DNA of 59,357 nt from a bacterium (GTDB taxonomy: Bacteria > Babelota > Babeliae > Babelales > CAIQNR01), in assembly GCA_947505805.1 (NCBI GenBank), contig CANNMA010000001.1, forward strand, positions 1-59,357, written 5' to 3'. The notes below the pieces were generated by a model. The model worked only from the letters and a program-made list of their open reading frames with translations. It did no database searches and was not told the DNA's origin. The position numbers and the translations under genes were made by a program. Positions 3,967 to 59,357 of the stretch are shown here, one piece after another. Positions within the stretch are counted from its first letter, which is position 1, and each line of letters starts with the position of its first letter.

Positions 3967-4716
3967 TTGGGGGAAAAGGGTGTGAAAAAGGGTGTAGTCA
4001 TAAGCGTTTTTTTAGGTATGAGTTTGAGCGCTCTTTTAGGGTGGCGATATTGGGAAGATATACGAGTAAAAACTGTATGTCGGCCTACATTTTTATGTGT
4101 ACCGTCTTGTCATGTTAAGTCTCTTTTATCAGAGCAGTCTATTGAAAAAATACAACATTTTTTTAATAAGCATTCCTCTGGTTATTCATCATGTAAAGCT
4201 TGTGCAGATCAATTACAAAAAACATTTCCTTGGATTCAAAAAGTATCATTTGAGCATACAAAAAACTCAGTATACAAGGTTTCTTTAGCGATTTCTGACC
4301 CCTGTTGCTGCATTAATTCAGAAAAAATTCTTACTTCATCGTATCATTTGACTGATCAAAGTATGTGGTTGAGTTCTGTTTTAAAAAACTTGCCACATAT
4401 TACTGTTAAAAAAGGTGCTTCTGTTGATGAATGGGGCTCTTACGTAAAAAATCTTTCTCATGCAATAACAGATCAGTATGCGGTAGAATGGGTTACTAAG
4501 TCGCGTATTTATTTCAGGGATAAAAAAGATGATTCACGAACTGTGCTTTTGAGTTCTGCCGATTCTTCGGTTGAGCTACTTTTGCAGCGAGAATGCATCC
4601 AATTGAAAGAATCATTACAAGCGAGAATACCAGTTTCTAAGGGACAAAAAAGAGATTGGATTATCGATCTGAGGTTTAAAAATCAAATAATAGTTTTTGA
4701 AGGGGGAAAAACATGA
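3967..4716 (+). CDS. ftsQ: Cell-division protein FtsQ/DivIB-like
   Basis: 249-aa ORF with one N-terminal TM segment (VVISVFLGMSLSALLGW). It lies directly upstream of ftsA and overlaps it by 4 nt. The call rests mainly on synteny. The start is uncertain (TTG 3967 or GTG 3982). Confidence 0.5.
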   Translation: MGEKGVKKGVVISVFLGMSLSALLGWRYWEDIRVKTVCRPTFLCVPSCHVKSLLSEQSIEKIQHFFNKHSSGYSSCKACADQLQKTFPWIQKVSFEHTKNSVYKVSLAISDPCCCINSEKILTSSYHLTDQSMWLSSVLKNLPHITVKKGASVDEWGSYVKNLSHAITDQYAVEWVTKSRIYFRDKKDDSRTVLLSSADSSVELLLQRECIQLKESLQARIPVSKGQKRDWIIDLRFKNQIIVFEGGKT

Positions 4717-7657: not shown

Positions 7658-8185
7658 TTAGACTAGACCTTTGCCAAGATCTTTTTTTCTTGATCGATCT
7701 TCTTTCATCAGTATACGTGCAGGGCAACGACCGAAATCATCTTGAATATAGAGGTCAGCTCCAGCTCGAATAAGAGTTTCCACAAGAGGCGTACAGTTTC
7801 TAGTTGCAGCTATCATAAGAGCGGTTTGACCGTAAATTCCACGAAGGTTTACATCAGCACCAGCTGCGATAAGAGCTTGCGTTGTAGCAAGATTGCTGAC
7901 GTGTGCAGCTATGGTAAGAGCAGTTTCACCGTTTTGGTTTTGAAAATTTATAGTAGCGCCAGCGTTAATAAGAATTTGCGCAATAGGACAATATCCTGCA
8001 AGTACAGCTACCATAAGAGGCGTATGATCAAGACCATTTACGGTATCTAGAAGAGTGCCGTTTCTGATAAAAGCTTGTACAGATCGAATATCATTGAGTC
8101 CGACAGCCATTGTTAAATTACTAGCATGCAGTGCTGAAAAGCTGCTTATTGCGCAGACAAGTGTTATAAGAATATTTTTTTTCAT
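7658..8185 (-). CDS. Signal-peptide ankyrin-repeat protein, paralog 1
   Basis: Three to four ANK-like repeats (DHTPLMVAVLAGYCPIAQILINAGATIN, NGETALTIAAH..ALIAAGADVN, YGQTALMIAATRNCTPLVETLIRAGADL). N-terminus MKKNILITLVCAISSFSALHA. The start is placed at the second ATG, because the track start at 8197 lies within the Shine-Dalgarno GGAG. Confidence 0.8.
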   Translation of the reverse strand: MKKNILITLVCAISSFSALHASNLTMAVGLNDIRSVQAFIRNGTLLDTVNGLDHTPLMVAVLAGYCPIAQILINAGATINFQNQNGETALTIAAHVSNLATTQALIAAGADVNLRGIYGQTALMIAATRNCTPLVETLIRAGADLYIQDDFGRCPARILMKEDRSRKKDLGKGLV

Positions 8186-8217
8186 GATTTTCTCCATTTA
8201 AAAAGATAAGTAAAGGG

Positions 8218-8751
8218 TTAAAATACCCCTCTAGCAATCGTTTTTGTTTTTGATTTGTCTTCTTTCATTAATAGTCGTGCTGGACAGTCTCCCGCATTAT
8301 TTTGAAGATAAATATCAGCACCAGCAGCAATAAGAATAAGAGCGGCTGGCATATTAAGATTTTGTATAGCAAGCATTAAAGCAGTATCCCCATTCCTATC
8401 TTGAAGATTAAGATCGATAGAAGGGGTAGCGATAAGAGCTTGTATGTTACTATCGTTTCCATTACATGCAGCATACATTAAAGCAGTCATGTCATGGTTA
8501 TCTTGCAGATTAACATCAGCATGAGCATCAATAAAAGCTTGTAGTATGTTGGCTGGTCGATGCATTATTACAGCCATCATAAGAGCGCTGCAACCAGCTT
8601 CATCTTGAAAATTAATAGTAGTACTAGATGTAATAAGCACTTGAATTGTTTCCAATTTTGAATATACAGCAGCACGTATAAGCTGACTGCCTTGTAGTAC
8701 TGAAAAACAACTTGTTAAGCAGCCAAGAAGTATAAGAGTATTTTTTTTCAT
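8218..8751 (-). CDS. Signal-peptide ankyrin-repeat protein, paralog 2
   Basis: ANK-like repeats (AGCSALMMAV..AFIDAHADVN, HDMTALMYAACNGN, NGDTALMLAIQNLNMPAALILIAAGADI). Shares the C-terminal CPARLLMKED motif with the gene at 7658-8185. Confidence 0.8.
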   Translation of the reverse strand: MKKNTLILLGCLTSCFSVLQGSQLIRAAVYSKLETIQVLITSSTTINFQDEAGCSALMMAVIMHRPANILQAFIDAHADVNLQDNHDMTALMYAACNGNDSNIQALIATPSIDLNLQDRNGDTALMLAIQNLNMPAALILIAAGADIYLQNNAGDCPARLLMKEDKSKTKTIARGVF

Positions 8752-9042
8752 GATTTTTTCCATTTTAAAAAGATAAAAACTGATATATATAATTTCTATT
8801 AGTATATGTGTTATTTGAAAAATGTCAAAATTTTATTATTTTGAATATGTGTATATAGAGAAATAAGCTTATTGAGGGATAAGGTTTTTGTGAATTACTA
8901 TTTAAAATATGCTACAAAGCATTAGAGCCCTTTTGAGATTGAGATTTAATCGTAAGTTTAATTGGTTTAAGCTGTTCTTGATAATGATTTGAAAAAACAG
9001 GTTATATCCCTTATACTAAACGAACTTTTGAAAAAATTTCAG

Positions 9043-14898: not shown

Positions 14899-14930
14899 AG
14901 CCTGAGTGTAAAAGCTCGGGCTTTTTTTTT
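14899..14930 (+). terminator. Intrinsic terminator after groEL
   Basis: AGCCTGAG-tgtaaaa-CTCGGGCT followed by T9. The stem has one G-U pair. Confidence 0.6.
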
Positions 14931-14974
14931 GATACTTTTGTACAAGATGTAGGTCTGCTAAAGAATGAAAAAAA
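14922..14974. repeat. Miniature palindromic relative of the 27537-27935 foldback element
   Basis: An exact 13-mer ACAAGATGTAGGT (14942-14954) equals 27554-27566. The 11-mer TGCTAAAGAAT (14956-14966) is the reverse complement of 27544-27554. The sequence is flanked by a T-run and an A-run, like the full element. Confidence 0.45.
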
Positions 14975-15038: not shown

Positions 15039-15671
15039 TCACTCACCCCGTACAGGAATAAGTTCTTTTCTACAGGAAGGGCAGTGTGAGGATGTCTCTT
15101 TAAATTGATCATAACATGTTTCATGAAGATGATGCCCACAGGTAAAATGGCTCATCTTTTCATCGCTATCTTCTTGCAGGCAAAAGCAGGGAGTTTCATA
15201 TGACTTTATTTGGTTAAGTGTTGGTCTAAAAATATTGAATCTGCTTTTTTCAAAATGATGCTGTAAGTATGTTTTTGAGAGGGCCAATTTTTCTGGAAAA
15301 TAATGGTTAAAATATGAACAGGCAACTCCTGTTATAGAACTATACAGTAGGGGACGATCTTTAGGGTCTATATCATTTAAAACAATACTTTCATAAGCTT
15401 TCATAAGACTGACATACATTATTAGGCCTCCAGAAAGAATGCATGCTTGTTTTATAGTATCTTTATAAGTTGCTCTTTCTTCTAACACTGCTTCTCGCAT
15501 TTGATCAGTTTGATCAAATAGATAAGACATCCCTTTAAAGCTAGTAATTCCAGCAACACTATGCCCAGCGATTAACCCAATAAGATAACTGGTGGGTAGT
15601 TCTGCCGAAAAAGATTGCGAATGTAGTGAACATAACAGTATGAACAAGGCTGTGAGGATATTTTTTTTCAT
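15039..15671 (-). CDS. Signal-peptide, multi-hydrophobic-segment protein with a C-terminal RING-H2-like finger (family 1)
   Basis: 210 aa. N-terminus MKKNILTALFILLCSLHSQSFSA, with Gly/Ala-rich hydrophobic segments. The C-terminal finger is C-F-C-x13-C-x-H-x2-H-x2-C-x10-C-x2-C (PCFCLQEDSDEKMSHFTCGHHLHETCYDQFKETSSHCPSC). Confidence 0.7.
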   Translation of the reverse strand: MKKNILTALFILLCSLHSQSFSAELPTSYLIGLIAGHSVAGITSFKGMSYLFDQTDQMREAVLEERATYKDTIKQACILSGGLIMYVSLMKAYESIVLNDIDPKDRPLLYSSITGVACSYFNHYFPEKLALSKTYLQHHFEKSRFNIFRPTLNQIKSYETPCFCLQEDSDEKMSHFTCGHHLHETCYDQFKETSSHCPSCRKELIPVRGE

Positions 15672-16335: not shown

Positions 16336-16947
16336 TTATTCGCCTCGCACAGGGATAAGTTCTTTTCTGCACAGTGGGCAAAGCTGGCAGGTCTCTTTAA
16401 GTTGGTTGTAACAGGCTGTATGAAGATGATGTCCACAAGTAAAATGGCTGATTTTTTCATCGCTGTCTTCTTCTAAGCAAAAACAGGGAGTGTCGTACGA
16501 TTCTATCTGATCAACTGTTGGTCTAAAAATATTTAATCGACTTCTGATAAGACATTTTTTCAAAAGATTTCCAGAAATACGACTCATTGCATTTAAAGAT
16601 GCTCCTGTTACTGCTCGTATACAGTGATAGCGGTGGGTAGCCCCTTGCTCATATGACTGAGAAAGTACAGCAATTATGCCTACGAGTGCTGCGCTGTTAA
16701 CAAGAACTTTTGTAATGATATGGATATCTGATCGAGAAAACTCTTGGTTAGTTGTCAGATCGATTTCATGAGCAAGAGCATTAAGATTAAAAAGCAGAAA
16801 TCCAGTTGCAGTTTCCATCAGTGCTTGATGTGTTCCATCAAAAGCTTCTTCCAGTACTGCAACATTTTCTTGAGTTTGCTGTGCGCAAAAAATCTGCCCA
16901 TGCAGCATGAGCGTTATAAAAAAAGCCTTTATGAGATGATTTTTCAT
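16336..16947 (-). CDS. Signal-peptide, multi-hydrophobic-segment protein with a C-terminal RING-H2-like finger (family 1)
   Basis: The C-terminal ~65 aa are nearly identical to the gene at 15039-15671 (SRLNIFRPTVDQIESYDTPCFCLEEDSDEKISHFTCGHHLHTACYNQLKETCQLCPLCRKELIPVRGE). The start is set at the ATG after GGAGG. The track start is a GTG inside the SD. Confidence 0.7.
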   Translation of the reverse strand: MKNHLIKAFFITLMLHGQIFCAQQTQENVAVLEEAFDGTHQALMETATGFLLFNLNALAHEIDLTTNQEFSRSDIHIITKVLVNSAALVGIIAVLSQSYEQGATHRYHCIRAVTGASLNAMSRISGNLLKKCLIRSRLNIFRPTVDQIESYDTPCFCLEEDSDEKISHFTCGHHLHTACYNQLKETCQLCPLCRKELIPVRGE

Positions 16948-16984
16948 AGTAACCTCCACATATGAATAGTATGAATTTTCTATC

Positions 16985-27536: not shown

Positions 27537-27935
27537 TTTTTTAATTCTTTAGCACAAGATGTAGGTATGCCCTCTGCGGGCAGCACCAAAGAGGTTGCTC
27601 ACCCAACCTCTTTGGAAACAAGGGTGCAAACATGCTGTTTGATGGCCTGTCGGCTACAACCTTGCGCCCATTAGGGCGACAACTCAGTTCCGCCTGATAT
27701 CGATTTTTTTATAAAAAAGATATTGTTGTTTTCTGTAAGCGAAACATAAGTAGTTATTCCGTATCAGGATCTCTTGTTTGAGGTCGTAAGCCCGCAGGAG
27801 CTGGACCGAGTTTGATCCGTAAAAAGCGATTAAACAGCATGTTTACACCCTTGTTTCCAAAGAGGTTGGGTGAGCAACCTCTTTGGTGCTGCACGCATAG
27901 TGCGCACCTACTTCTTGTACTAAAGAATTAAAAAA
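27537..27935. repeat. 399-bp GC-rich foldback element with 104-nt inverted arms (candidate MITE or structured-RNA locus)
   Basis: The left arm 27537-27640 is the reverse complement of the right arm 27832-27935 with 8 mismatches by hand alignment. Each arm carries a perfect 12-bp hairpin, CCAAAGAGGTTG-ctcacc-CAACCTCTTTGG, and a short hairpin. No long ORF is present. Confidence 0.75.
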
Positions 27936-28062
27936 CACTTTATCTTGATGGGTAAGATTTTTTTAAGCAACGACTTAAAAAGGATCAAAACTATTGATTT
28001 ACTTTTTGATTCCTTATTACAATTTGTATCCAGTTATCAAAACTTTAAAAAGGAGACTCGAT

Positions 28063-29061
28063 ATGAGTAAAAATAATCTTCTTGTTATAACGGTCCTGCT
28101 TGCGTTAAGTGGACACCTTGTAGGAAGCGATGATGTCAGAAAATCTGGCAAAAAAGAAAAGAAAGACGATGCATCTACTCATGTAACTCATCATAGAAAT
28201 CATCAAACTCGTTTCCATGAACATATTGAAGAAAAAAGACAAAGACGAATTGAGCATGAAAAAGCAAGAAAAGACAGAAACATGTCTGATCAAAACCATC
28301 ATTTGGATACCATAGAACATCACTTGGGAGATGCTTTAGTAGAGCAAAAAGATGCACAAAAAGAATCACGAGAATCATTTAAAAGAGTCAGCGATAAAGA
28401 TCTTAGAAGAGGTCGTCAATCTAAACCTCTCCATCCAGTAACACAAACAAAAAAAGTAACACGGTTGAATGAAGCAAGAAAAGACGTTCAAGAAAAAATA
28501 GCTAAAATTCGCAAAAGACAAGGTGAATTGTCTTCAGATGGGCAAGATCAACTTCGTCGTCAATTAAAACAGGAACATATGCTTGTAGATCGTTTAGATG
28601 CTCAAGTTGAAGCGCAAAGACAAGAAATTAAAGATCTTCAAGATAGGCACTCAACTCTTCGTCATCACGATATGAAAAAAGCAAATCGTCTTGCAGAAGA
28701 TAAAGATCTTCACAATGCAACTAGACTTGATAAGCGTGATGCAGCAACGCATGCTGATACAGATCGTATGCATGTTCGAATGGTTGAATTGGGACAAATT
28801 CGTTCTGATAAAGACATGAGATTGGAAAAAGTGATTGCGGCAAAACGTCAACAACTTGAACCAGTTAAAGCTAAGTTGGAAGACGCAAAAGCAAAAATGC
28901 ATGAAACAGAAGCTAAGTTACTTCTTGATCCTAAAGAAGAAGATAAAGCTGATGCAGCATTAAAAGATGCAAAAGCTGGAGCGGTTCCTGCGCAAAAAGG
29001 TCTCTTTTCAGAACGAGCTCGTCATCTTTCAGCAGCACGTGAAGAATTGAGAATGCTTTAA
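28063..29061 (+). CDS. Signal-peptide, highly charged His/Lys/Arg/Glu/Asp-rich coiled-coil protein
   Basis: The start is trimmed to the ATG at 28063, which follows AAAGGAG (MSKNNLLVITVLLALSGHLVG). The rest is low-complexity charged sequence such as HVTHHRNHQTRFHEHIEEKRQRR. Confidence 0.55.
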   Translation: MSKNNLLVITVLLALSGHLVGSDDVRKSGKKEKKDDASTHVTHHRNHQTRFHEHIEEKRQRRIEHEKARKDRNMSDQNHHLDTIEHHLGDALVEQKDAQKESRESFKRVSDKDLRRGRQSKPLHPVTQTKKVTRLNEARKDVQEKIAKIRKRQGELSSDGQDQLRRQLKQEHMLVDRLDAQVEAQRQEIKDLQDRHSTLRHHDMKKANRLAEDKDLHNATRLDKRDAATHADTDRMHVRMVELGQIRSDKDMRLEKVIAAKRQQLEPVKAKLEDAKAKMHETEAKLLLDPKEEDKADAALKDAKAGAVPAQKGLFSERARHLSAAREELRML

Positions 29062-35778: not shown

Positions 35779-36465
35779 ATGATACATAATTATACTATGC
35801 CAACTTCAGCTCGTGACTTTATGTATAAGGTCTATGGATGGATGTCAGTTGCGTTAGCTGCGACTGCCGCTATTGCCTATTATATTGGCTCAACTCCTGC
35901 GATGTATACTCCTATTTTGCAAAATAAAATCTTATTTTTTGGAATTATGATTGCTCAATTGGCAATTGTTGTTTTTCTACAATGGAAGATTAAAAGCCTG
36001 ACATACACAGAAGCAGTTATTGCTTTTTTAAGCTATGCAGCTTTGACAGGGATTACTCTTTCAACAATTTTCTTGGTCTATACTATGGCTTCGATTTATA
36101 CCGCTTTCTTGATCACAGCAGGTCTTTTTGCGATTATGTCCGCTTATGGGTATCTGACTAATGCAGATTTGAGTAGCATGGGTAGTTTTTTAGTCATGGG
36201 ACTTTTTGGAATCATACTTGCGATGTTTGTAAATATGTGGTTTCAGAGCCCTCTAGCGAATTATTATATTTCCTTGGTGGCAGTTGGTATTTTTACCCTG
36301 TTGACTGCGTATGATGTTCAAAAATTAAAACGTCTTGCAGAATCGATGATGGTCGATCCTGAAACAAAACAAAAAATGGCAATTATTGGTGCTTTAACTC
36401 TTTACCTAGATTTTATTAACTTGTTTTTGAATCTTCTTCAGGTAATGGGTAAAAAGCGTGACTAA
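35779..36465 (+). CDS. BAX inhibitor-1/YccA-family membrane protein
   Basis: About seven TM segments and the family-typical LLTAYDVQKLK motif near the C-terminus. Confidence 0.75.
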   Translation: MIHNYTMPTSARDFMYKVYGWMSVALAATAAIAYYIGSTPAMYTPILQNKILFFGIMIAQLAIVVFLQWKIKSLTYTEAVIAFLSYAALTGITLSTIFLVYTMASIYTAFLITAGLFAIMSAYGYLTNADLSSMGSFLVMGLFGIILAMFVNMWFQSPLANYYISLVAVGIFTLLTAYDVQKLKRLAESMMVDPETKQKMAIIGALTLYLDFINLFLNLLQVMGKKRD

Positions 36466-36561: not shown

Positions 36562-38454
36562 ATGATTCAACTTAAAGATATTTGTCTTAATTTTGGTAGT
36601 CAGGCAGTTTTTGATCATCTTTCGATGAACGTTAATCCTGATCAACGAATCGGTTTGGTAGGGCGTAACGGGTCTGGTAAATCAACATTGTTAAAAGCAA
36701 TTGATGGATTACAACATTTAGATAGTGGGGCTATTTCAGTAACAGGAAACATGAATGTTGCTTATATGCCTCAGGAAATGGTGCTTGCAAGTACTCGTTC
36801 TATTTTGGATGAAGCGGTTAGTTCTTATAAAGATGTAGGACCACTTCGTGATCGGTTTCTTTATTTGGAACCACTCTTGGAAAATCAAGACAGTGCCGTT
36901 ATAGAAGAATATGCAGAAGTTGCAGAACGCCTTTCAGAGCTTAATGTTGAATATGCTATTGCTGAAACAAAAAAGATGCTATTAGGTCTTGGGTTTAAGA
37001 TTGAACAGTTTGGTCATCCCGTTAATACGTTCAGTGTAGGCTGGCAGATGCGTATTGTTCTTGCAAAATTGTTGTTACGGCAAGCTGATTTTTATCTTTT
37101 TGATGAACCAACTAACCATTTGGACCTTGTTGCAAAAGACTGGTTCTTAGACTTTTTAAGAGACATGGACTGTGGGTTTATGCTTGTTTGTCATGATAAA
37201 TATTTTCTTGATGGTCTTTGTACCGTTATTTTAGAACTTGATCGTGGTAAAGGAACTACGTATTACGGTAATTACACGCAATACGAAGAAGAAAAAGAAT
37301 CACGTCTTCAGGCATTGCTTCAAGCACAAACTCTTCAACAAAAAGATATTCAACGCAAAAAAGAGACAATTGCTCGATTTAAGGCAGTTGCAAGTAAGGC
37401 AACTTTTGCAAAAAGTTTGCAAAAATCACTTGATAAGATAGAAGTTATTGAAGTTCCTACTGATGCTCGAAAAGTGCGTTTTACATTCCCTCCTACAGTG
37501 CGTCCTGGTCGTGTTGTTCTTGAAGTAAAAGATGTTGCTTTTAGTTTTGAAAATAAACAAATTTTTGATCAGGTAACGTTCCAAATTGAACGTGGAGAAA
37601 AAGTTGCCCTTGTTGCTCCTAACGGGGTTGGTAAGACAACGTTATTTAATGTAATTTGCGGAAAATATAAACAAACTCATGGTAAAATCGATCTTGGCTA
37701 TAATGTTAAATCGACCATTTTTGAACAAGACCAAAATCGTGTTCTTGATCCTCGTAAAACGATTATCGATGAAGTATGCGATAACACTATGAATAAATCT
37801 GAACAAGAAGTTCGTTCATTTTTGGGTGCATTTTTGTTTGGTAAGTCTGAAATTCAAAAAAAGACGAGCGTTTTAAGTGGTGGTGAAAAAAATCGTCTGA
37901 GTATGGTTAAAGTACTACTGCAAGATGCTAACTTTTTGCTCCTTGACGAACCTACTAACCATTTGGATATTCCTTCTAAAGAAATTTTATTGAGAGCATT
38001 ACAGCAATTTGATGGAACGCTTTTGTTCGTATCTCACGATCAAGATTTTGTGAATCATTTGGCAACTCGTATTATTGAATTAACTCCTCATGGAGTGCAT
38101 AGCTATGCAGGTAATTATGAACTGTATCTTCAACAAAAAAGAGATGCAGAGCGAATTCTTGCAGGGCGTGATGGTGGTAAATCTTCAAAAGGTGGTCAAT
38201 CAGGATCAAGTGATGCTGATGATAAGGAAGATCGTAAGGTTGCATTTTCGTTAAAGAAAGAACAGCAGCGTCTCGAATCTAAAATTCAACGTTTAGAAAA
38301 AGAGATTGGTACCTTGCAAGCATCATTTGCAGATGTTGATTATGGTACTCCTGAATTCGATACAATTTCTGATTCACTTGATACTGCACAGGCTAACTTG
38401 CAAGAAGCTCAAACAGAATGGGAATCAGTGGTCGAAAGATTAGGAAAACTTTAA
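36562..38454 (+). CDS. ABC-F family ATPase (two ABC cassettes, no TM domain)
   Basis: Cassette 1 has GRNGSGKST, FSVGWQMR and LFDEPTNHLD. Cassette 2 has APNGVGKTT, LSGGEKNR and LLLDEPTNHLD. The inter-domain linker is Q/K-rich and the tail is a C-terminal coiled coil. Confidence 0.9.
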   Translation: MIQLKDICLNFGSQAVFDHLSMNVNPDQRIGLVGRNGSGKSTLLKAIDGLQHLDSGAISVTGNMNVAYMPQEMVLASTRSILDEAVSSYKDVGPLRDRFLYLEPLLENQDSAVIEEYAEVAERLSELNVEYAIAETKKMLLGLGFKIEQFGHPVNTFSVGWQMRIVLAKLLLRQADFYLFDEPTNHLDLVAKDWFLDFLRDMDCGFMLVCHDKYFLDGLCTVILELDRGKGTTYYGNYTQYEEEKESRLQALLQAQTLQQKDIQRKKETIARFKAVASKATFAKSLQKSLDKIEVIEVPTDARKVRFTFPPTVRPGRVVLEVKDVAFSFENKQIFDQVTFQIERGEKVALVAPNGVGKTTLFNVICGKYKQTHGKIDLGYNVKSTIFEQDQNRVLDPRKTIIDEVCDNTMNKSEQEVRSFLGAFLFGKSEIQKKTSVLSGGEKNRLSMVKVLLQDANFLLLDEPTNHLDIPSKEILLRALQQFDGTLLFVSHDQDFVNHLATRIIELTPHGVHSYAGNYELYLQQKRDAERILAGRDGGKSSKGGQSGSSDADDKEDRKVAFSLKKEQQRLESKIQRLEKEIGTLQASFADVDYGTPEFDTISDSLDTAQANLQEAQTEWESVVERLGKL

Positions 38455-39971
38455 TCTTTTTCCATCCATAGGGTACCAAAAGTATAGAGTTTGACCCTTG
38501 GATTGAATTGACAGGCTACCTTTAAAAGTTCTGATGCGCAGCCAATGATAACAGTTGATTTTGATAAAATCATTGCATGAGCAAGTTTAAGTTCATTGTT
38601 TTTGATAATCGATAGCTCTGGTTTAATTACATTTTTATATCGTTTAAGTACCTCTTTAGAAAAGTTGCTGCAGGTACTGACGAGAATAATTGTATAATTA
38701 GCCGGGGCTTCTTGTAGTTCTTTATCAAGTTGATTGAGAAGGTCAAAAGAGTTTTGTGTCCCGTCATAATAGAGACTTATGATATAAGGCTTAATCCTAT
38801 TTTGAGTCATAAATATATCTATTTGTTGACCTAATGCCGGTTCTAATTTGATGTACTTTGTTATGAGTTCATTCGCTCTGAGAGGGTTCATCTCAAAGAG
38901 ATTATTTGGACCAAATACATCAATCATGTAATCGGTTATTTTGAATGATGTATCGGGATTGCCAGTGCTAATCTCTTTAAAATAGCGTTGCCACCAGTTA
39001 GATTTTTTTTCTGAAAGAGGATTATTATATTCAGTTGAAACTGTGCTTTCAAAACCAGTAATGATCCCTTTTTCATACTGATCGAGCAAATACAAAACAG
39101 TATGTAATTTCATAAATATAGTGTGTCGATCAGGATGAATTTCCTCTTTATAATTTTTAGTAAGATCGATGACTGGCATTGAAGGATTGAACTTTAATGA
39201 ACAGCTACTGAGGTTTGATGTTGTGCGATAGAGCTTTGAGCATTGTGCTAATAAAAGACAATCTAAAAGAGCATCTTGCCCCAATTGGTAAGCATTTTTT
39301 GAACGTGGATAATGGATCGGTTTTGAACTGTTTGAACGGAAAGCGCTTGTGCTGATAATGTGTCCAGGGAATTTTTCTTGGATGAACATAAGAAAATTTT
39401 CATCATCAGTAGCAACAAAAAAAAGTACGTTACTATTAACATGTACCTCCAACGCAAGTACATCACATACTTCTTCATATGGGATAAGTGGACCATCAAC
39501 TTTTTTATCCGTACCTCGATAATGAATGCCTATAACATGATTGTCCTTGAAATAGGTTTCAGTAAACGCATTAAGTTTCATCTGAATAGTAGGCTTTATG
39601 CGAATATATTTTTGTATGAGTTCGTATCCTCGTTTACGAGACATGATAAATTGTGAAGAAACGGAAAATGTTATTTTTCGATAGAGGGGAAATTTTTTAG
39701 CGGTAGAAGTTATATCGCAGCTAATAGGTTCAAAATAATATTCAAACCAATTTGAACCATAATTAGGATCGTAATATAACCCTTTATTTTCAAAATCAAT
39801 GATAAGTCCATTGCATGTTGGATCACGATCATAAAAATCAAGCGTCCCAAGAATGGTATTAAAAATATTAAAAAAACCGGCTTCATACGGTGGATGAGTC
39901 AGTCTATAGGTTGTGGGGAATATTGAATTTTGTAGAAATACTAACAACCACAAAAGATTGCCTTTATGCAT
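38451..39971 (-). CDS. Signal-anchored GT23-like (FUT8/NodZ-type) glycosyltransferase with an internally duplicated domain
   Basis: 506 aa. N-terminal anchor MHKGNLLWLLVFLQNSIF. VIGIHYRGTDK resembles the HVRRTDK motif of alpha-1,6-fucosyltransferases, and FFVATDDENF resembles their ATDD motif. The second half repeats the fold but with degenerate motifs. Confidence 0.5.
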   Translation of the reverse strand: MHKGNLLWLLVFLQNSIFPTTYRLTHPPYEAGFFNIFNTILGTLDFYDRDPTCNGLIIDFENKGLYYDPNYGSNWFEYYFEPISCDITSTAKKFPLYRKITFSVSSQFIMSRKRGYELIQKYIRIKPTIQMKLNAFTETYFKDNHVIGIHYRGTDKKVDGPLIPYEEVCDVLALEVHVNSNVLFFVATDDENFLMFIQEKFPGHIISTSAFRSNSSKPIHYPRSKNAYQLGQDALLDCLLLAQCSKLYRTTSNLSSCSLKFNPSMPVIDLTKNYKEEIHPDRHTIFMKLHTVLYLLDQYEKGIITGFESTVSTEYNNPLSEKKSNWWQRYFKEISTGNPDTSFKITDYMIDVFGPNNLFEMNPLRANELITKYIKLEPALGQQIDIFMTQNRIKPYIISLYYDGTQNSFDLLNQLDKELQEAPANYTIILVSTCSNFSKEVLKRYKNVIKPELSIIKNNELKLAHAMILSKSTVIIGCASELLKVACQFNPRVKLYTFGTLWMEKD

Positions 39972-39973
39972 TA

Positions 39974-40801
39974 CTATTTTGATTCCGATAGTTCTGGATA
40001 TCTGGCTATAATACTATTTCTTTCTTTATAAAACCGATCACTTTTGATTTGAGCAGAAGAAAGCCCTTCTGGGTTTTCATAGATAAGTCCTGTCAGAAAA
40101 TTTGGAATTTTATAAAAAATTGAACTTTTAGTTGCAGCTGTAATCCACATGTCATGATCTCCAAAAATTGTAAATTTTTCATTAAAAAATCCGTATTTTT
40201 CATGCATTGATTTACGCCACATTGGCTGTGGTCCAGGTAAACATTGAGTTAGATGTTGTAATGCAAATGTTTGAACTTGAAACCACCATCTATAGTTGTT
40301 ATTTTCAAACGTTTGATTAGCTGTATAGGTAATTAGATAATCGCCGTAGACTAAATCAATAGTTTTGTCTGCTTCAAGAGCTTTTGCTTGAATACGAATT
40401 CCGTCGGGATTTCTTCTATCATCAAGGTTAGCGTTGGTAACTAAATCAGCAGATGCTAATTTTATACCCATATTCCAAACTCCATAGAGTCCGGGATCTT
40501 TGTAGAGCTTGATATAAGTTATATTAGGATACTTTGGTAAATATTCTTTTATAGTTTCATATTCATTACCTGGAGAGTTTGCATTAATTAAAAGAAGTTC
40601 ACATTCATTAAAAATGGTTTGACGAATGATGTCTTCCATAAATCCTTTAATAAATTCATCCCCTTTGTATATTGAAGTTATAATTGTTACGCGGGGTTTA
40701 AAAGTTATTACATTGTTTAAATCAAATTTTGTATTTGAACTGATCTTATTGAAACTAATTATTATTACCACTATCAAAGTAAAATATTTTTTTATATTCA
40801 T
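39974..40801 (-). CDS. Signal-anchored family-2 glycosyltransferase
   Basis: VTIITSIYKGDEFIKGFMEDIIRQT, NANSPGNE and NANLDDRRNPD (DxD-type), which are GT-A/GT2-like. The ATG at 40801 gives MNIKKYFTLIVVIIISF. The TTG at 40840 is the alternative start. Confidence 0.7.
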   Translation of the reverse strand: MNIKKYFTLIVVIIISFNKISSNTKFDLNNVITFKPRVTIITSIYKGDEFIKGFMEDIIRQTIFNECELLLINANSPGNEYETIKEYLPKYPNITYIKLYKDPGLYGVWNMGIKLASADLVTNANLDDRRNPDGIRIQAKALEADKTIDLVYGDYLITYTANQTFENNNYRWWFQVQTFALQHLTQCLPGPQPMWRKSMHEKYGFFNEKFTIFGDHDMWITAATKSSIFYKIPNFLTGLIYENPEGLSSAQIKSDRFYKERNSIIARYPELSESK

Positions 40802-40821
40802 TATATTCTTTCGAAAAAAAA

Positions 40822-42336
40822 TTATTCCATCTCTTTCCAAGATTTTCCAACTTTATGAACTGGTATTGTTGGATTAAATTGAGAAGCTATTTGTATGGTT
40901 TCTGATGATGAGCCGATTATTTCATTTAATTTAGAAAGTAGTATGGCTTGGGCAATTCCAGCCTCATCTTTGGATGTGTTGATATCCATAGTAATAACAG
41001 GTGAGTATCTTTTTTTCATTTCATTGAAAAAATATTGATCTGAAGTAATTAGTACTATTTTGTATGGGGTAGGACATTTTTTTATTTGTTCATCAAGTTT
41101 ATTAAATATCCAAGAATACCATCCATGTTCATAGTAAACTCCAATTATGTAATGATTTTTACATTCTTGATTAATAAACGTATTAATTTTTTCTAATAAT
41201 GTTGGTTGAATTGTAATATATTTTGTTATAAGTTCATGTGCTCTGTTAGCAGACATCTCAAATATATTGTTGATTCCTAAAACTAACGAAGAATAATAAG
41301 GTATTTCAAGTTGATCATTTGTACCAATGCTTAATGGTTCAAAGCATGTTTTCCACCAATTTGAGCATCTATTCTGAGGATATTCGGTAGATATTACTGG
41401 TAAAGTAATAGAAAACCCTGTTAATTCTTTGTGTTCATATTTATCCAGTAAGGATAAAGTAGTATTGAAGAGAGCAAGAGTATTGTATTCATACATTTCT
41501 ACCTCTTCCCATTTACTTTTATTGAGTTGAATAACAGGAATTAAGGGATTAATTTTTTGAGCTGTATCGCTTAAGTTTGATGCTGTTCTATAAACTTTTG
41601 AACATTTTGAGAGTAATAAACAATCAAAAATTCCATCTTCTCCTATCTGATAGGGATCACGAGAGGGAGAGCGATAAGGAGGTTTTCCATCTGAAGAGCG
41701 AGTTGCATTAGAATTAATAATTTTTCCTGGGAATTGTTTTTGCATAAAAGAAAGAAAATTTGCATCATCGGTGGCAATAAAGATTTTTAGATTTTTCTGT
41801 TCTTTGATTTCTCTTTCTATGAACAGTTTTAATACTTCGTAGGAAACTTGTGGAGCTTCTTCCTGCTTATCTGTTCCTCGATAATGAATACCAATTATCT
41901 GGTTATTAAAAAAGTTTTCTAGAAGAAATGTATCTAATTTTTTTTGTATATGCGGTTTTAGATGAATATATTTTTTAATAAGTTCATGACTACGTGTTCT
42001 TGATAATCCAAATTGACCAAAAAAAGAAAAATTTATCTTTTTGTAGTTAGGAAATTTTTTTACTTCATTGTGATTTGCTTTAATTTCAATTGGCTCAAAG
42101 TAATAATTCCACCAATTAGGCCCACGACTTGGGTCGTAGTACAATCCTTGATCTTCGAAATCAACGATAAAGCCATCATCGTTTTGTAACGTGTCATAAA
42201 AATCAAGAGCTCCTAAAACGCTGTGAAATGCACTAAAAAATCCTGCAGTAAAAGGAAAATGAGTTAATTTGTATGTTACAGAAAGTGTGCAATGGTTAAA
42301 AATTATGAGTAAGGAAAATAATAATTTTAATTTCAT
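40822..42336 (-). CDS. Signal-anchored GT23-like glycosyltransferase, paralog of the gene at 38451-39971
   Basis: 504 aa. IIGIHYRGTDK and IFIATDDANF. The N-terminal 60 aa align closely with the paralog (YKLTHFPFTAGFFSAFHSVLGALDFYD versus YRLTHPPYEAGFFNIFNTILGTLDFYD). Confidence 0.5.
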   Translation of the reverse strand: MKLKLLFSLLIIFNHCTLSVTYKLTHFPFTAGFFSAFHSVLGALDFYDTLQNDDGFIVDFEDQGLYYDPSRGPNWWNYYFEPIEIKANHNEVKKFPNYKKINFSFFGQFGLSRTRSHELIKKYIHLKPHIQKKLDTFLLENFFNNQIIGIHYRGTDKQEEAPQVSYEVLKLFIEREIKEQKNLKIFIATDDANFLSFMQKQFPGKIINSNATRSSDGKPPYRSPSRDPYQIGEDGIFDCLLLSKCSKVYRTASNLSDTAQKINPLIPVIQLNKSKWEEVEMYEYNTLALFNTTLSLLDKYEHKELTGFSITLPVISTEYPQNRCSNWWKTCFEPLSIGTNDQLEIPYYSSLVLGINNIFEMSANRAHELITKYITIQPTLLEKINTFINQECKNHYIIGVYYEHGWYSWIFNKLDEQIKKCPTPYKIVLITSDQYFFNEMKKRYSPVITMDINTSKDEAGIAQAILLSKLNEIIGSSSETIQIASQFNPTIPVHKVGKSWKEME

Positions 42337-42432: not shown

Positions 42433-43188
42433 TTAAAAAGGATTTTTTGTTCTGCAGTATGCGCATTCATTTTTTTGTTTGAGCCATTCTTTTAAGCAGT
42501 TGGCATGAAACCAATGTCTACATTTGGTTAATCGTGTTTCTTTAGTAAAAGGCTCAACATTTTCTAAGCAGATGGTACAAGTACTGTCTTTAAAAAGATC
42601 TTTACAAAAATGTTGTGTTTCTAGAGGAGCGTCTTTATCTAGCCCATATGCTCGTAATTCTGTATTCATATCATTTTTTTTGAAAATGCCATGTCTGAAC
42701 ATAAGTGATAATTTTTTATATTTTCCCGCATCCATAAGTCGTTTGAGATCTTTTTTCTTTATGGCTTCAATATCTGTTGATTCGCCTATTTTTTTTGATT
42801 TGCCTTGAAGGTAAGGGACTTTCATTTGTAAAAAAAAGGGAATAAAAGCAAGGTGTTTTTTTTCTAGAATTTTAGAATAATTTGATGATGAATGATGTTT
42901 ATTTATCGAAAGATCGGCCCCATTTTTTAATAAATATCGAGCTGCTCCAAAAAGTTTTTTTTCTATTATTCGATCGAGAGGAGATTTTTGAGTTATAGGG
43001 TCATAGGTGTTGATATTAGCATTTCCTGCTGTAAGGGCTCGTTCAATATCTTCATGTGAGTCTTTTTCTATTCCCCAAAAAAGTAATCGATCGGCATAGG
43101 TAAGATTACGATTATCATGGGGCAAGGATGCGTATAATGAAAGGGTGTTGGACATCATGACCAGAATTGTAAGTATTTTAGTTTTCAT
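42433..43188 (-). CDS. Signal-peptide protein with ankyrin-like repeats and a canonical C-terminal RING-H2 finger
   Basis: The finger is C-x2-C-x15-C-x-H-x2-H-x2-C-x10-C-x2-C (CTICLENVEPFTKETRLTKCRHWFHANCLKEWLKQKNECAYC). ANK-like sequence SPLDRIIEKKLFGAARYLLKNGADLS. N-terminus MKTKILTILVMMSNTLSLYA. Confidence 0.7.
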   Translation of the reverse strand: MKTKILTILVMMSNTLSLYASLPHDNRNLTYADRLLFWGIEKDSHEDIERALTAGNANINTYDPITQKSPLDRIIEKKLFGAARYLLKNGADLSINKHHSSSNYSKILEKKHLAFIPFFLQMKVPYLQGKSKKIGESTDIEAIKKKDLKRLMDAGKYKKLSLMFRHGIFKKNDMNTELRAYGLDKDAPLETQHFCKDLFKDSTCTICLENVEPFTKETRLTKCRHWFHANCLKEWLKQKNECAYCRTKNPF

Positions 43189-47627: not shown

Positions 47628-47716
47628 TGGAGGAGAGGGTGGGATTCGAACCCACGATCCTTATTAGGGATAACGGTTTTCAAGACCGCCGCAATCGACC
47701 ACTCTACCACCTCTCC
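47628..47716 (-). tRNA. tRNA-Ser (anticodon TGA)
   Basis: The reverse complement is GGAGAGG..GCGGT-cTTGAAa-ACCGT with a long variable arm, T arm GTGGG-TTCGAAT-CCCAC, and CCTCTCC-T-CCA. Confidence 0.9.
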
Positions 47717-47773
47717 AACAAGATATTTATAAATACTTCATAGGATTTACTACGCCTTAAAACGTAAAAAAAC

Positions 47774-47850
47774 TGGTGCGCCCAGAAGGAGTCGAACCTA
47801 CAACCTTCAGATCCGTAGTCTGACGCTCTATCCAATTGAGCTATGGGCGC
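47774..47850 (-). tRNA. tRNA-Arg (anticodon ACG)
   Basis: The reverse complement is GCGCCCA-TA-GCTC..TCAGA-cTACGGa-TCTGA..GTAGG-TTCGACT-CCTTC-TGGGCGC-A-CCA. Confidence 0.9.
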
Positions 47851-47995
47851 CCATAATCTATGGGTATTTTAAACTTTATATTTCATAGAACTTTTAATTG
47901 ATACTTATGTGTTGTTCTTAAGTTAAAAACAATATGGCTACATGTAGTTCTTATATCTAAAAACTAGCACCGGTCGAGGCTTAATAGGCAAAGAC

Positions 47996-48087
47996 TGGTG
48001 GAGAGAACGAGATTCGAACTCGTGATCCAGCTTCCGCCAGAAACTTGCTTAGCAGGCAAGCGCTTTCGACCACTCAGCCATCTCTCC
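47996..48087 (-). tRNA. tRNA-Ser (anticodon GCT)
   Basis: The reverse complement is GGAGAGA..CTTGC-cTGCTAa-GCAAG with a long variable arm, T arm ACGAG-TTCGAAT-CTCGT, and TCTCTCC-A-CCA. Confidence 0.9.

Positions 48088-58343: not shown

Positions 58344-59357
<1,014 letters not shown>

Follow-up and report, generated by a model that had tools for sequence, protein, structure and literature searches.

A 401-bp foldback element beside ftsL-ftsI in a Babeliales genome consists of two inverted copies of a hairpin module that recurs in Clostridia

Location and anatomy of the element

The DNA stretch analyzed here (hereafter the window) comprises the 59,357 nucleotides (nt) of contig CANNMA010000001.1 from the assembly GCA_947505805.1, and carries at positions 27536-27936 a 401-bp non-coding foldback element of a Babeliales (Dependentiae) genome. 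Homologues of the FtsI protein encoded in the window are named Candidatus Babeliales, and the gene content of the contig (ankyrin and RING proteins, Bax inhibitor, FtsA/FtsZ) is consistent with an intracellular member of the Dependentiae. The element is located in the spacer between divergent genes, with an ftsL-like gene (27150-27434, minus strand) followed by ftsI on its left, and the open reading frame (ORF) ORF332 (28063-29061, plus strand) on its right. The idea of a site upstream of groES/groEL, similar to CIRCE (controlling inverted repeat of chaperone expression), was discarded, as the left-hand genes are the ftsL-like gene and ftsI.

A first-pass annotation, made from the sequence letters, had described inverted arms of 104 nt (27537-27640 and 27832-27935) with 8 mismatches. 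These were recovered by a base-by-base comparison, and a repeat search extended the arms to 111 nt each (27536-27646 and 27826-27936, 91% complementary, 179 nt between them), with 10 mismatches over the full length. The element was also, as noted then, richer in guanine and cytosine (GC) than its AT-rich surroundings (GC fraction of 0.44, vs. 0.27 and 0.34 in the 500-nt flanks and 0.36 in the whole window). The perfect 12-bp hairpin that had been noticed in each arm, CCAAAGAGGTTG-N6-CAACCTCTTTGG, occurs exactly twice in the window (0.00 occurrences expected from shuffles), and it is accompanied by a small hairpin that reads GCCC-tctgc-GGGC in the left arm and, in the same sense, GCAC-tatgc-GTGC in the right arm, a double change affecting both sides of the stem. 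Read from the outside inward, each arm is composed of T6-AATTCTTTAG-nACAAGAnGTAGGT, the small hairpin (hp1), the 12-bp hairpin (hp2), AAACAAGGGTG-AAACATGCTGTTT, and a third small hairpin (hp3), and a GTAGG is placed 3 nt 5' of hp1 in both arms. The third hairpin (GCC-tgtc-GGC on the left, GCTCCTGCGGGC on the right) is similar to CGCCTGCGGGCG in Clostridial copies and to CGCCTGGCGGCT in loci L004 and L015 (L numbers designate the loci compared below). The two modules are inverted, their loops, linkers, and tails being mutual reverse complements, with a distance of 241 nt from hp2 to hp2 and of 309 nt from hp1 to hp1. Further inward the two halves continue to mirror each other weakly until CCTGATA (27693-27699) and TATCAGG (27762-27768), which had been pointed out before together with an interior hairpin and an AT palindrome, all of them present. 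The central AT palindrome has counterparts in L044 and L004 and in a number of Clostridial copies (CGATTTTTTTGAAAAAAATCG), and another one precedes the Butyricicoccus module described below. The window element is thus made of two inverted copies of a modular unit (outer terminus, hp1, hp2, and hp3) around a degenerate, mirror-symmetric interior. Its features and the adjoining spacer blocks are as follows.

27536-27936, no strand: whole foldback element, an insertion between the ftsL-like gene and ORF332, recognized by the inverted repeat, the GC contrast, and its absence from the spacers of relatives
27536-27646, plus strand: left arm, 111 nt, reproduced in L001 and L002
27826-27936, minus strand: right arm, 111 nt, 10 mismatches to the left arm, outer part reproduced in L003
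27537-27568, plus strand: left outer terminus, T6-AATTCTTTAG-CACAAGATGTAGGT with GTAGG; the motif is found again at 14935-14954 and 27906-27925
27904-27935, minus strand: right outer terminus, mirror of the left one, from the sequence and terminal-motif pattern matches
27569-27619, plus strand: left two-hairpin module (covariance model R1, 58.8 bits, E-value 5e-14), with hp1 at 27569-27581, the linker AGCA, hp2 at 27586-27615 (12 bp, loop of 6 nt), and AAAC
27853-27903, minus strand: right two-hairpin module (R1, 56.4 bits, E-value 2.5e-13), with hp1 at 27891-27903 (GCAC-tatgc-GTGC) and hp2 at 27857-27886
27644-27655, plus strand: third small hairpin, left (GGCC-TGTC-GGCT), followed by ACAACCTT; seen by eye and in the weak mirror alignment
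27790-27801, minus strand: third small hairpin, right (GCTCCTGCGGGC on this strand), within a block TGTTTGAGGT...CCGAGTTTGAT common to the Babeliales copies
27665-27678, plus strand: interior hairpin CGCCC-atta-GGGCG, from the sequence and the DNA fold
27700-27722, no strand: central AT palindrome TCGATTTTTTTATAAAAAAGATA, with counterparts including L044 812-835
27405-27526, minus strand: ftsL-proximal spacer block shared with the closest relative, outside the element, left limit of the insertion zone
27987-28062, plus strand: ORF332-proximal spacer block shared with the closest relative, outside the element, with a promoter-like site at 27994-28023

The element encodes no protein and matches no known RNA family. 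The absence of any ORF of 60 amino acids (aa) or more stood up to checking: the longest ORFs overlapping the element have 54 and 46 aa, and neither has a Pfam match. The Rfam scan that the first reading had proposed gave nothing over the element, either at the gathering threshold or at E-values up to 10, and nothing in 12 related loci or in L004, L019, and L024; RNase P, tmRNA, SRP, 6S, omega-RNA/HEARO, and the Clostridiales motifs all stayed below their gathering scores in the element. A weak match to Clostridiales-2 (16 bits vs. a gathering score of 58.6) reflected a generic GC hairpin only and was rejected. No promoter-like or terminator-like site was found inside the window element, and annotated plasmids and phages contained no match to it or to the Clostridial unit. 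Six matches of the terminal motif in viral contigs were all within AT-rich coding sequence and were dismissed as chance, as were L006 and L022 because they lack hp2. The folding z-scores of the element (-20.8 and -23.9, with 0/100 shuffles equally stable) are a trivial consequence of the long inverted repeat. TTAA does occur at both ends, as had been claimed, but it belongs to the inverted repeat and no target-site duplication could be demonstrated: the flanks read ...TTATGA and ACTTTA..., with no direct repeat abutting G27536 and C27936.

Assembly check

Contigs from Logan (SRR7054680) and a contig from ENA (ERZ27280198) were 100% identical to the window, arm-specific variants included, which makes a chimeric artefact very unlikely. 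What could be taken as a sign of a palindrome produced by foldback assembly is the way in which the short-read k-mer assemblies stop, since the Logan contigs end inside a 47-nt perfect inverted stretch and the whole element is spanned by none of the independent contigs. The arms, however, differ at 10 positions (8 of them the mismatches on which the first-pass annotation had already based its doubts about an artefact), both arm versions were recovered, each next to the unique flank belonging to it, in independent assemblies of two samples, the interior is asymmetric, and a like architecture exists in other genomes. There is hence next to no chance that the element was created by assembly. As it interrupts short-read assemblies of these MAGs (metagenome-assembled genomes), annotators should mask or label it.

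Comparison with the orthologous spacers of relatives

Four relatives (82-71% FtsI identity) keep the gene order bamA, ORF, spacer, ftsL, ftsI, and their orthologous spacers have 256-294 nt and no module, compared to 628 nt in the window. With the closest relative (82% FtsI identity) the window spacer aligns up to ~27526 and again from ~27987, while the middle is unrelated. This comparison bears on the possibility that the element is a locus-specific palindrome bound by a regulatory protein that controls the divergent ftsL-ftsI operon and ORF332, a role to which both the location between divergently transcribed genes and an architecture suited to dimeric DNA-binding proteins would lend themselves. 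It is missing from the spacer in 4/4 relatives, despite the kept gene order and the aligned promoter-proximal blocks, and the same module is found at unrelated loci of unrelated phyla. The absence in relatives largely refutes a regulatory palindrome, which we consider highly improbable.

In the closest relative, the place of the element in the spacer upstream of ftsL (L047 1728-2005) is taken by an unrelated stretch of ~125 nt, in which GGCYYTTTTTTATT occurs in two direct copies.

A module family with copies in other Babeliales and Clostridia

The first-pass annotation had suggested searching the whole genome and its relatives with one arm, and what was found is a discrete two-hairpin module that occurs singly, in tandem, and as inverted pairs. 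The exact hp2 pattern gave 0 matches in GTDB genomes and a single one in JGI metagenomes (L004), and was too specific because hp2 stems vary. In L004, a GC-rich element of ~490 bp lies between convergent genes, with a 25-nt terminal inverted repeat whose copies are ~480 bp apart. Its right side carries the same hp2 as the window followed by GCCC-gcgta-GGGC, and its left side four tandem 32-nt units, each with a small hairpin and covarying stems (GTCC/GGAC, CGC/GCG), next to a large hairpin of different sequence (CCAAGGGTATC-cttgtc-GATACCCTTGG). A contig from a viral collection (L005, 54% GC) ends with GCCC-tgcgc-GGGC-AGCG-CCAAAGGGGC..GCCCCTTTGG.

A GTDB scan was then performed with the shared core GCCCTnnGCGGGCAGCnCCAAAG, for which, with 20 specified bases, about one chance match is expected, and it returned 34 loci. 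Most of these (25) come from one Clostridiaceae genome. The others include two loci of a Ca. Babeliales MAG, each with two inverted matches ~500 bp apart, two MAGs of 34% GC labelled Pseudomonadota with copies near-identical to the Babeliales ones, a MAG of 44% GC, two Butyricicoccus MAGs, and one Eubacteriales MAG. Nearly all core matches also carry the CTTTGG closure at the right distance as well as the AAWC tail, neither of which was required by the pattern, and because both recur without being searched for, the module was defined as hp1-AGCR-hp2-AAWC. Its consensus reads GCCC-TnnGC-GGGC-AGCR-CCAAAG[stem-loop]CTTTGG-AAWC, with an hp1 of 4 bp and loop TnnGC, and an hp2 whose invariant CCAAAG/CTTTGG base carries a variable, 3-6-bp distal stem with a 2-6-nt loop. 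Genomes with this signature range from 34% to 60% GC, and the 30 bases of sequence plus structure are kept across very distant phyla. The conserved unit is the hairpin module and not the long arm, and it forms a family that is represented in other Babeliales and, by hundreds of copies, in gut Clostridia.

In Clostridiaceae strain 9, assembly QXXE01, 87 R1 matches (~73 of them full modules) were counted in 183 kb, i.e., about one per 2.5 kb, arranged singly, in tandem (45-nt period), or inverted. The repeat blocks measure 100-340 bp, with two to four per 8-kb locus, and a repeat census of these loci revealed no long repeat resembling an insertion sequence (IS). Copies are located upstream of separate canonical terminators, and 14/16 modules with a called gene within 100 nt upstream sit 40-80 nt past the stop codon in the same sense, a figure that depends on crude gene calls. 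In Butyricicoccus the module is single-copy and occupies an orthologous site between tRNA-Cys and a malic-enzyme gene (L030 2481-2524 and L040 2842-2885).

Several further observations were made on these copies. An AT palindrome and a TATAAT box lie ahead of the Butyricicoccus module, whose hp2 together with ~40 nt after it is the most diverged part of a region otherwise 97% identical. Head-to-tail arrays are found at L018 879-1010, L024 845-1112, L034 769-991, L046 5942-6028, and L004 3387-3512 (the last with the 32-nt period). In the Clostridiaceae arrays (45-nt period), hp2 is perfect in the last unit alone; in the internal ones it contains an A-C mismatch (CCAAAGGGC...GCCCTCTGG). The MAG CAZMYL01 (L025, L044) is titled 'uncultured Pseudomonadota', has 34% GC and elements near-identical to those of Ca. 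Babeliales DALYEP01, and L044 shows a Babeliales-like gene order bamA-cysS; its Pseudomonadota label is probably wrong. L015 (CAZHJT01, 44% GC, also labelled Pseudomonadota) carries a single module. A 62-codon in-frame ORF (MLLSDDTFDAATFTPLRYIVAVTIRK...) is kept in the full-length Babeliales elements (L019 ~4343-4531, L044 ~630-818), where copies of 85% identity differ within it by substitutions alone; the window element lacks this ORF and, with three sequences, its conservation may be due to chance.

Covariation of the hairpins

For the covariation analysis, 19 distinct modules were aligned and their base pairs counted. In hp1 and hp2 combined, 95.3% of the cells are standard pairs, a share that falls to 27-57% in controls with the 3' partners shifted by 1 to 3 columns; 7/16 pairs show changes on both sides, and 0/500 shuffles reached the observed pairing or covariation score. 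Since hp1 and the hp2 base were fixed in the pattern and the regular expression used to gather the modules, the informative covariation is that of the distal hp2 stem and the hp1 variants. The distal stems are diverse in sequence yet paired across the family (GGGGC/GCCCC, GGGAC/GTCCC, AGAGGTTG/CAACCTCT, GTATTG/CAATAC, GGTGTG/CACACC), and hp1 occurs as GCCC/GGGC, GTCC/GGAC, CGCC/GGCG, and GCAC/GTGC, the last of these, known from the right arm of the window, being seen again in the Babeliales copy L025. Between the two Butyricicoccus sites, which are orthologous and share 97% identity overall, hp2 shows a compensatory change from G-C to A-T and further changes in the loop. The kind of paired change first noticed between the two window arms thereby holds for the family as a whole: the hairpins are kept by compensatory change, and the structure is under selection. 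For an interior RNA structure of the Babeliales copies, only 2 covarying pairs were obtained from 3 sequences, too few to support one. A reading of hp2 (12-6-12) as the core site of a tyrosine recombinase was rejected, as stems in the family have 9-12 bp and loops 2-6 nt.

Gain and loss of copies

Copies are gained or lost between related genomes, and nearly identical ones are found at different loci of one genome. L013 and L019, located on one Babeliales contig, are 95.9% identical over 584 bp and have different neighboring genes, and partial copies adjoin full ones in L013, L025, and L044. L019 is flanked on both sides by TATA, inside a larger AT palindrome. Besides the ftsL spacer, two more pairs of filled and empty sites were recognized, with L044 as the filled and L053 (Babeliales genome DALYEP01) as the empty member. 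In the convergent bamA/ORF spacer, the 68 nt of L053 (8476-8543) contain a canonical bidirectional terminator, AAAAAAAGCTCTC-taaat-TGAGAGCTTTTTT, and L044 (463-1150) has 688 nt, with a foldback element of ~680 bp in the terminator's place. After cysS, the flank shared by L044 and L053 reaches the first base of hp1, so that the hairpin module itself is the boundary. The near-identical copies and the insertion polymorphism at three loci are evidence at the level of the family and not for the exact subtype present in the window.

Position relative to genes raises the question of whether the modules are a host-useful cassette of structured RNA or terminators (a 3'-untranslated region (3'-UTR) stabilizer, a bidirectional terminator, or a small-RNA gene in each arm), with dispersal being secondary; for a bidirectional terminator, both directions would be served by the runs of T and of A in the central AT palindrome. 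The sense bias after stop codons in Clostridiaceae points this way, and so do the substitution of the L053 terminator by the L044 element and the location of the L004 and L044 elements between convergent genes, where each gene reads hp1 and then hp2. Also in line with it is the conserved structure, both across phyla and between two Butyricicoccus species that have a single copy at an orthologous site. In the window, however, the genes on either side are divergent, so that the copy is not entered by any transcript from upstream, and no promoter-like or terminator-like site was found inside it; in no case does a T-run directly follow a hairpin, and the Clostridial copies precede separate, canonical terminators. 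Considering also the absence of Rfam matches and that the element is dispensable at the window locus in all relatives examined, an RNA cassette appears quite unlikely as the primary identity of the family.

Comparison with known repeat systems

Repetitive extragenic palindromic (REP) repeats and the REPINs that they form are well studied in Proteobacteria. Together with the bacterial interspersed mosaic elements (BIMEs), and with their REP-associated tyrosine transposase (RAYT, a Y1 HUH transposase), they offer a close likeness: short, GC-rich, imperfect palindromes kept as hairpins in intergenic regions, present as singletons, head-to-tail arrays, or inverted doublets foldable as one long hairpin, very abundant in some genomes, variable between relatives, and often situated between stop codon and terminator. 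REPs are known to occur singly, head-to-tail, and inverted (PMC3733652, PMC3116915), and REP dimers inside longer carrier palindromes are documented (PMC3733652), to which the window modules within their T6-AATTCTTTAG...GTAGGT termini are comparable. The GTAGG ends of the window element point outward, i.e., head-to-head in the sense of PMC3733652.

The unit of the family has two, possibly three hairpins and 43-51 nt, in contrast to a single stem-loop of 20-40 nt in REPs. The REP hallmark is a GTAG or CGTC tetranucleotide at the foot of one stem (PMC3733652), and neither is found at that place in L004, L015, the L019-type copies, or any Clostridial module. REP dimers are typically spaced by 20-100 bp (PMC3733652), vs. 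~240 nt between the window modules, and no RAYT, which in REP systems is usually a single-copy gene with REPs on its flanks, was found on the contig or, by tblastn with Y1 queries, in 474 kb. The family therefore fails two defining features of REPs, the tag and the dimer spacing. In addition, a REP family is usually confined to one lineage, in which it co-evolves with its RAYT (10.1101/2021.07.10.451892; PMC6006769), whereas the module sequence is common to Clostridia and Dependentiae.

Palindromic repeats of intracellular bacteria and bacterial MITEs are likewise among the closest known kinds. The Rickettsia palindromic elements (RPEs) and other CGTC-tagged repeats of such bacteria are also palindromic, non-coding, dispersed, and variable in copy number in an AT-rich, obligately intracellular host, but the family described here has no CGTC tag and was not seen inserted into coding sequence, the window element is larger (401 bp), and the two are unrelated in sequence. 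The palindrome-associated transposable elements (PATEs) derived from IS200/IS605 have subterminal hairpins with conserved foot bases, no target duplication, and a presumed single-stranded recognition. Their end hairpins are, however, on the same strand and their ends are not inverted repeats, whereas the window modules are inverted; moreover, no match to TnpA, TnpB, or omega-RNA was obtained (Rfam; tblastn with Y1 queries).

Miniature inverted-repeat transposable elements (MITEs) of bacteria, such as the Correia elements of Neisseria or the QMITEs of Coxiella (PMC5896051), are intergenic and ORF-free, have 100-600 bp with terminal inverted repeats, and are able to fold as a long hairpin in RNA. 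A classical MITE would be an internally deleted IS whose DDE transposase binds the double-stranded terminal repeats, the hairpins being incidental. The long terminal inverted repeats (111 nt in the window, ~70-85 nt in L019), the small size, and the lack of ORFs agree with this origin, as do the near-identical copies at different loci (L013/L019) and the TATA on both sides of L019 within the AT palindrome. MITEs, on the other hand, stem from an identifiable IS and generate target-site duplications (TA for Correia elements), and neither was seen here: no target duplication is visible at the window copy, and a parent IS with these termini is present in none of the loci examined (~0.5 Mb). It is the internal hairpins and not the terminal repeat that are conserved and covary, which binding to double strands does not require; modules also exist singly and in head-to-tail arrays, the arms of L004, L013, and L019 differ in hp2 or the inner sequence, and one copy is bounded at hp1 without any outer repeat. 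A classical MITE is therefore unlikely, and the behavior of the family in Clostridia is closer to REP/BIME than to a transposase-derived MITE of this kind.

The searchable literature yielded no account of elements like these from Dependentiae, of this repeat from Clostridia, or of REP/REPIN-type repeats from Firmicutes or Dependentiae. The family appears undescribed, and the cross-phylum conservation of its sequence-plus-structure signature is its unusual part.

Proposed origin and mechanism

We interpret the window element as probably a palindromic mobile repeat that is non-autonomous, belongs with either the REP doublets (REPIN/BIME) or the foldback MITEs, and was acquired in the spacer between ftsL-ftsI and the divergent gene. 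Both halves of the first proposal, a non-autonomous foldback or MITE-like element and a pair of inverted structured modules, find support in this combination. Single-stranded DNA would extrude the local hairpins, and these, together with the invariant foot bases (AGCR-CCAAAG...CTTTGG-AAWC), may be the recognition signal for a trans-acting enzyme encoded elsewhere in the genome, the likeliest candidate being a structure-specific HUH/Y1 transposase (RAYT or IS200-type). This type of recognition is suggested by the covarying stems, by the one boundary that coincides with hp1, by the REP-like occurrence of units as single, head-to-tail, and inverted copies, and by the lack of visible target duplications. 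The copy in the window would be a tolerated passenger that left both promoter-proximal blocks intact. If the modules are transcribed (within 3' UTRs in Clostridia, or between convergent genes in L004 and L044), the hairpins may also stabilize or terminate transcripts.

Several results weigh against a mobile repeat of this sort. No transposase or recombinase domain was detected by Pfam in the 45 contig ORFs of at least 150 aa, no Y1/HUH gene by tblastn with Y1 queries in the 474 kb, and no transposase in the ORF lists of the Babeliales loci. The GTAG/CGTC tag is not conserved in the family, the spacing of the modules is far beyond that of typical REP dimers, and the sense bias of the Clostridiaceae modules could instead reflect a role at the RNA level. 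The window copy comes without a clean empty site, target duplication, or exact boundary, as the central part of the spacer cannot be aligned. R1 matches in the 59-kb window are limited to the two arms, and with one full copy and one termini-only relative in this length, multiple copies in the source genome are no more than a possibility.

A bolder view, possible though doubtful, is that the 'CCAAAG' module represents a distinct superfamily that spreads horizontally among gut Clostridia and protist-associated Dependentiae, has a partner other than the GTAG/CGTC RAYTs, and doubles as a portable 3'-end cassette; the window foldback would be its two-faced version, landed between divergent genes. 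The cassette part of this view is suggested by the sense copies just after stop codons and by the L044 element in the place of its relative's bidirectional terminator.

With regard to the window alone this is a modest result, namely a probable passenger insertion located upstream of the cell-division operon. What sets the family apart is the cross-phylum signature, the absence of the tags by which known REP superfamilies are defined, and the very high density in at least one Clostridiaceae genome. Should a mobilizing enzyme be found, it would widen the known range of hairpin-recognizing transposition systems, and should the modules prove to work at the transcript level, they would exemplify mobile 3'-end elements.

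A termini-only relative and other features of the contig

The miniature relative that had been reported near 14922-14974 is real, but it consists of termini only, without the hairpins.

14925-14973, no strand: termini-only relative, made of a left terminus (T7..CTTTTGTACAAGATGTAGGT) and an inverted outermost terminus (CTAAAGAATGAAAAAA), without hairpins

It directly follows the groEL terminator, between the convergent groEL and RING-finger genes. The terminal motif CTTTnGnACAAGAnGTAGGT (17 specified bases) has 3 matches in the window vs. 0.00 expected, and the outermost 16-mer, TTTTTTnAnTCTTTAG, which the relative shares on the opposite strand, 3 matches vs. 0.36 expected, both patterns having been designed after this relative had been seen. 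It may be a deletion derivative of the element or an unoccupied carrier palindrome.

Apart from the element, the contig encodes many eukaryote-like proteins: four RING-finger proteins (15039-15671, 16336-16959, 18741-20672, and 42433-43188), two ankyrin-repeat proteins, and a Bax-inhibitor-1 homologue (regions listed for the latter group: 7658-8763 and 35779-36465). Two NodZ/FUT8-like (fucosyltransferase-like) ORFs are found on either side of a family-2 glycosyltransferase (38451-42336). A cluster of tRNA-Ser, tRNA-Arg, and tRNA-Ser is encoded on the minus strand at 47628-48087, and the contig ends within a 16S rRNA gene (58344-59357, first 1010 positions). One FtsI homologue (P0030) is named as a protein of an Alteromonas MAG, though it is 60% identical to the Babeliales FtsI.

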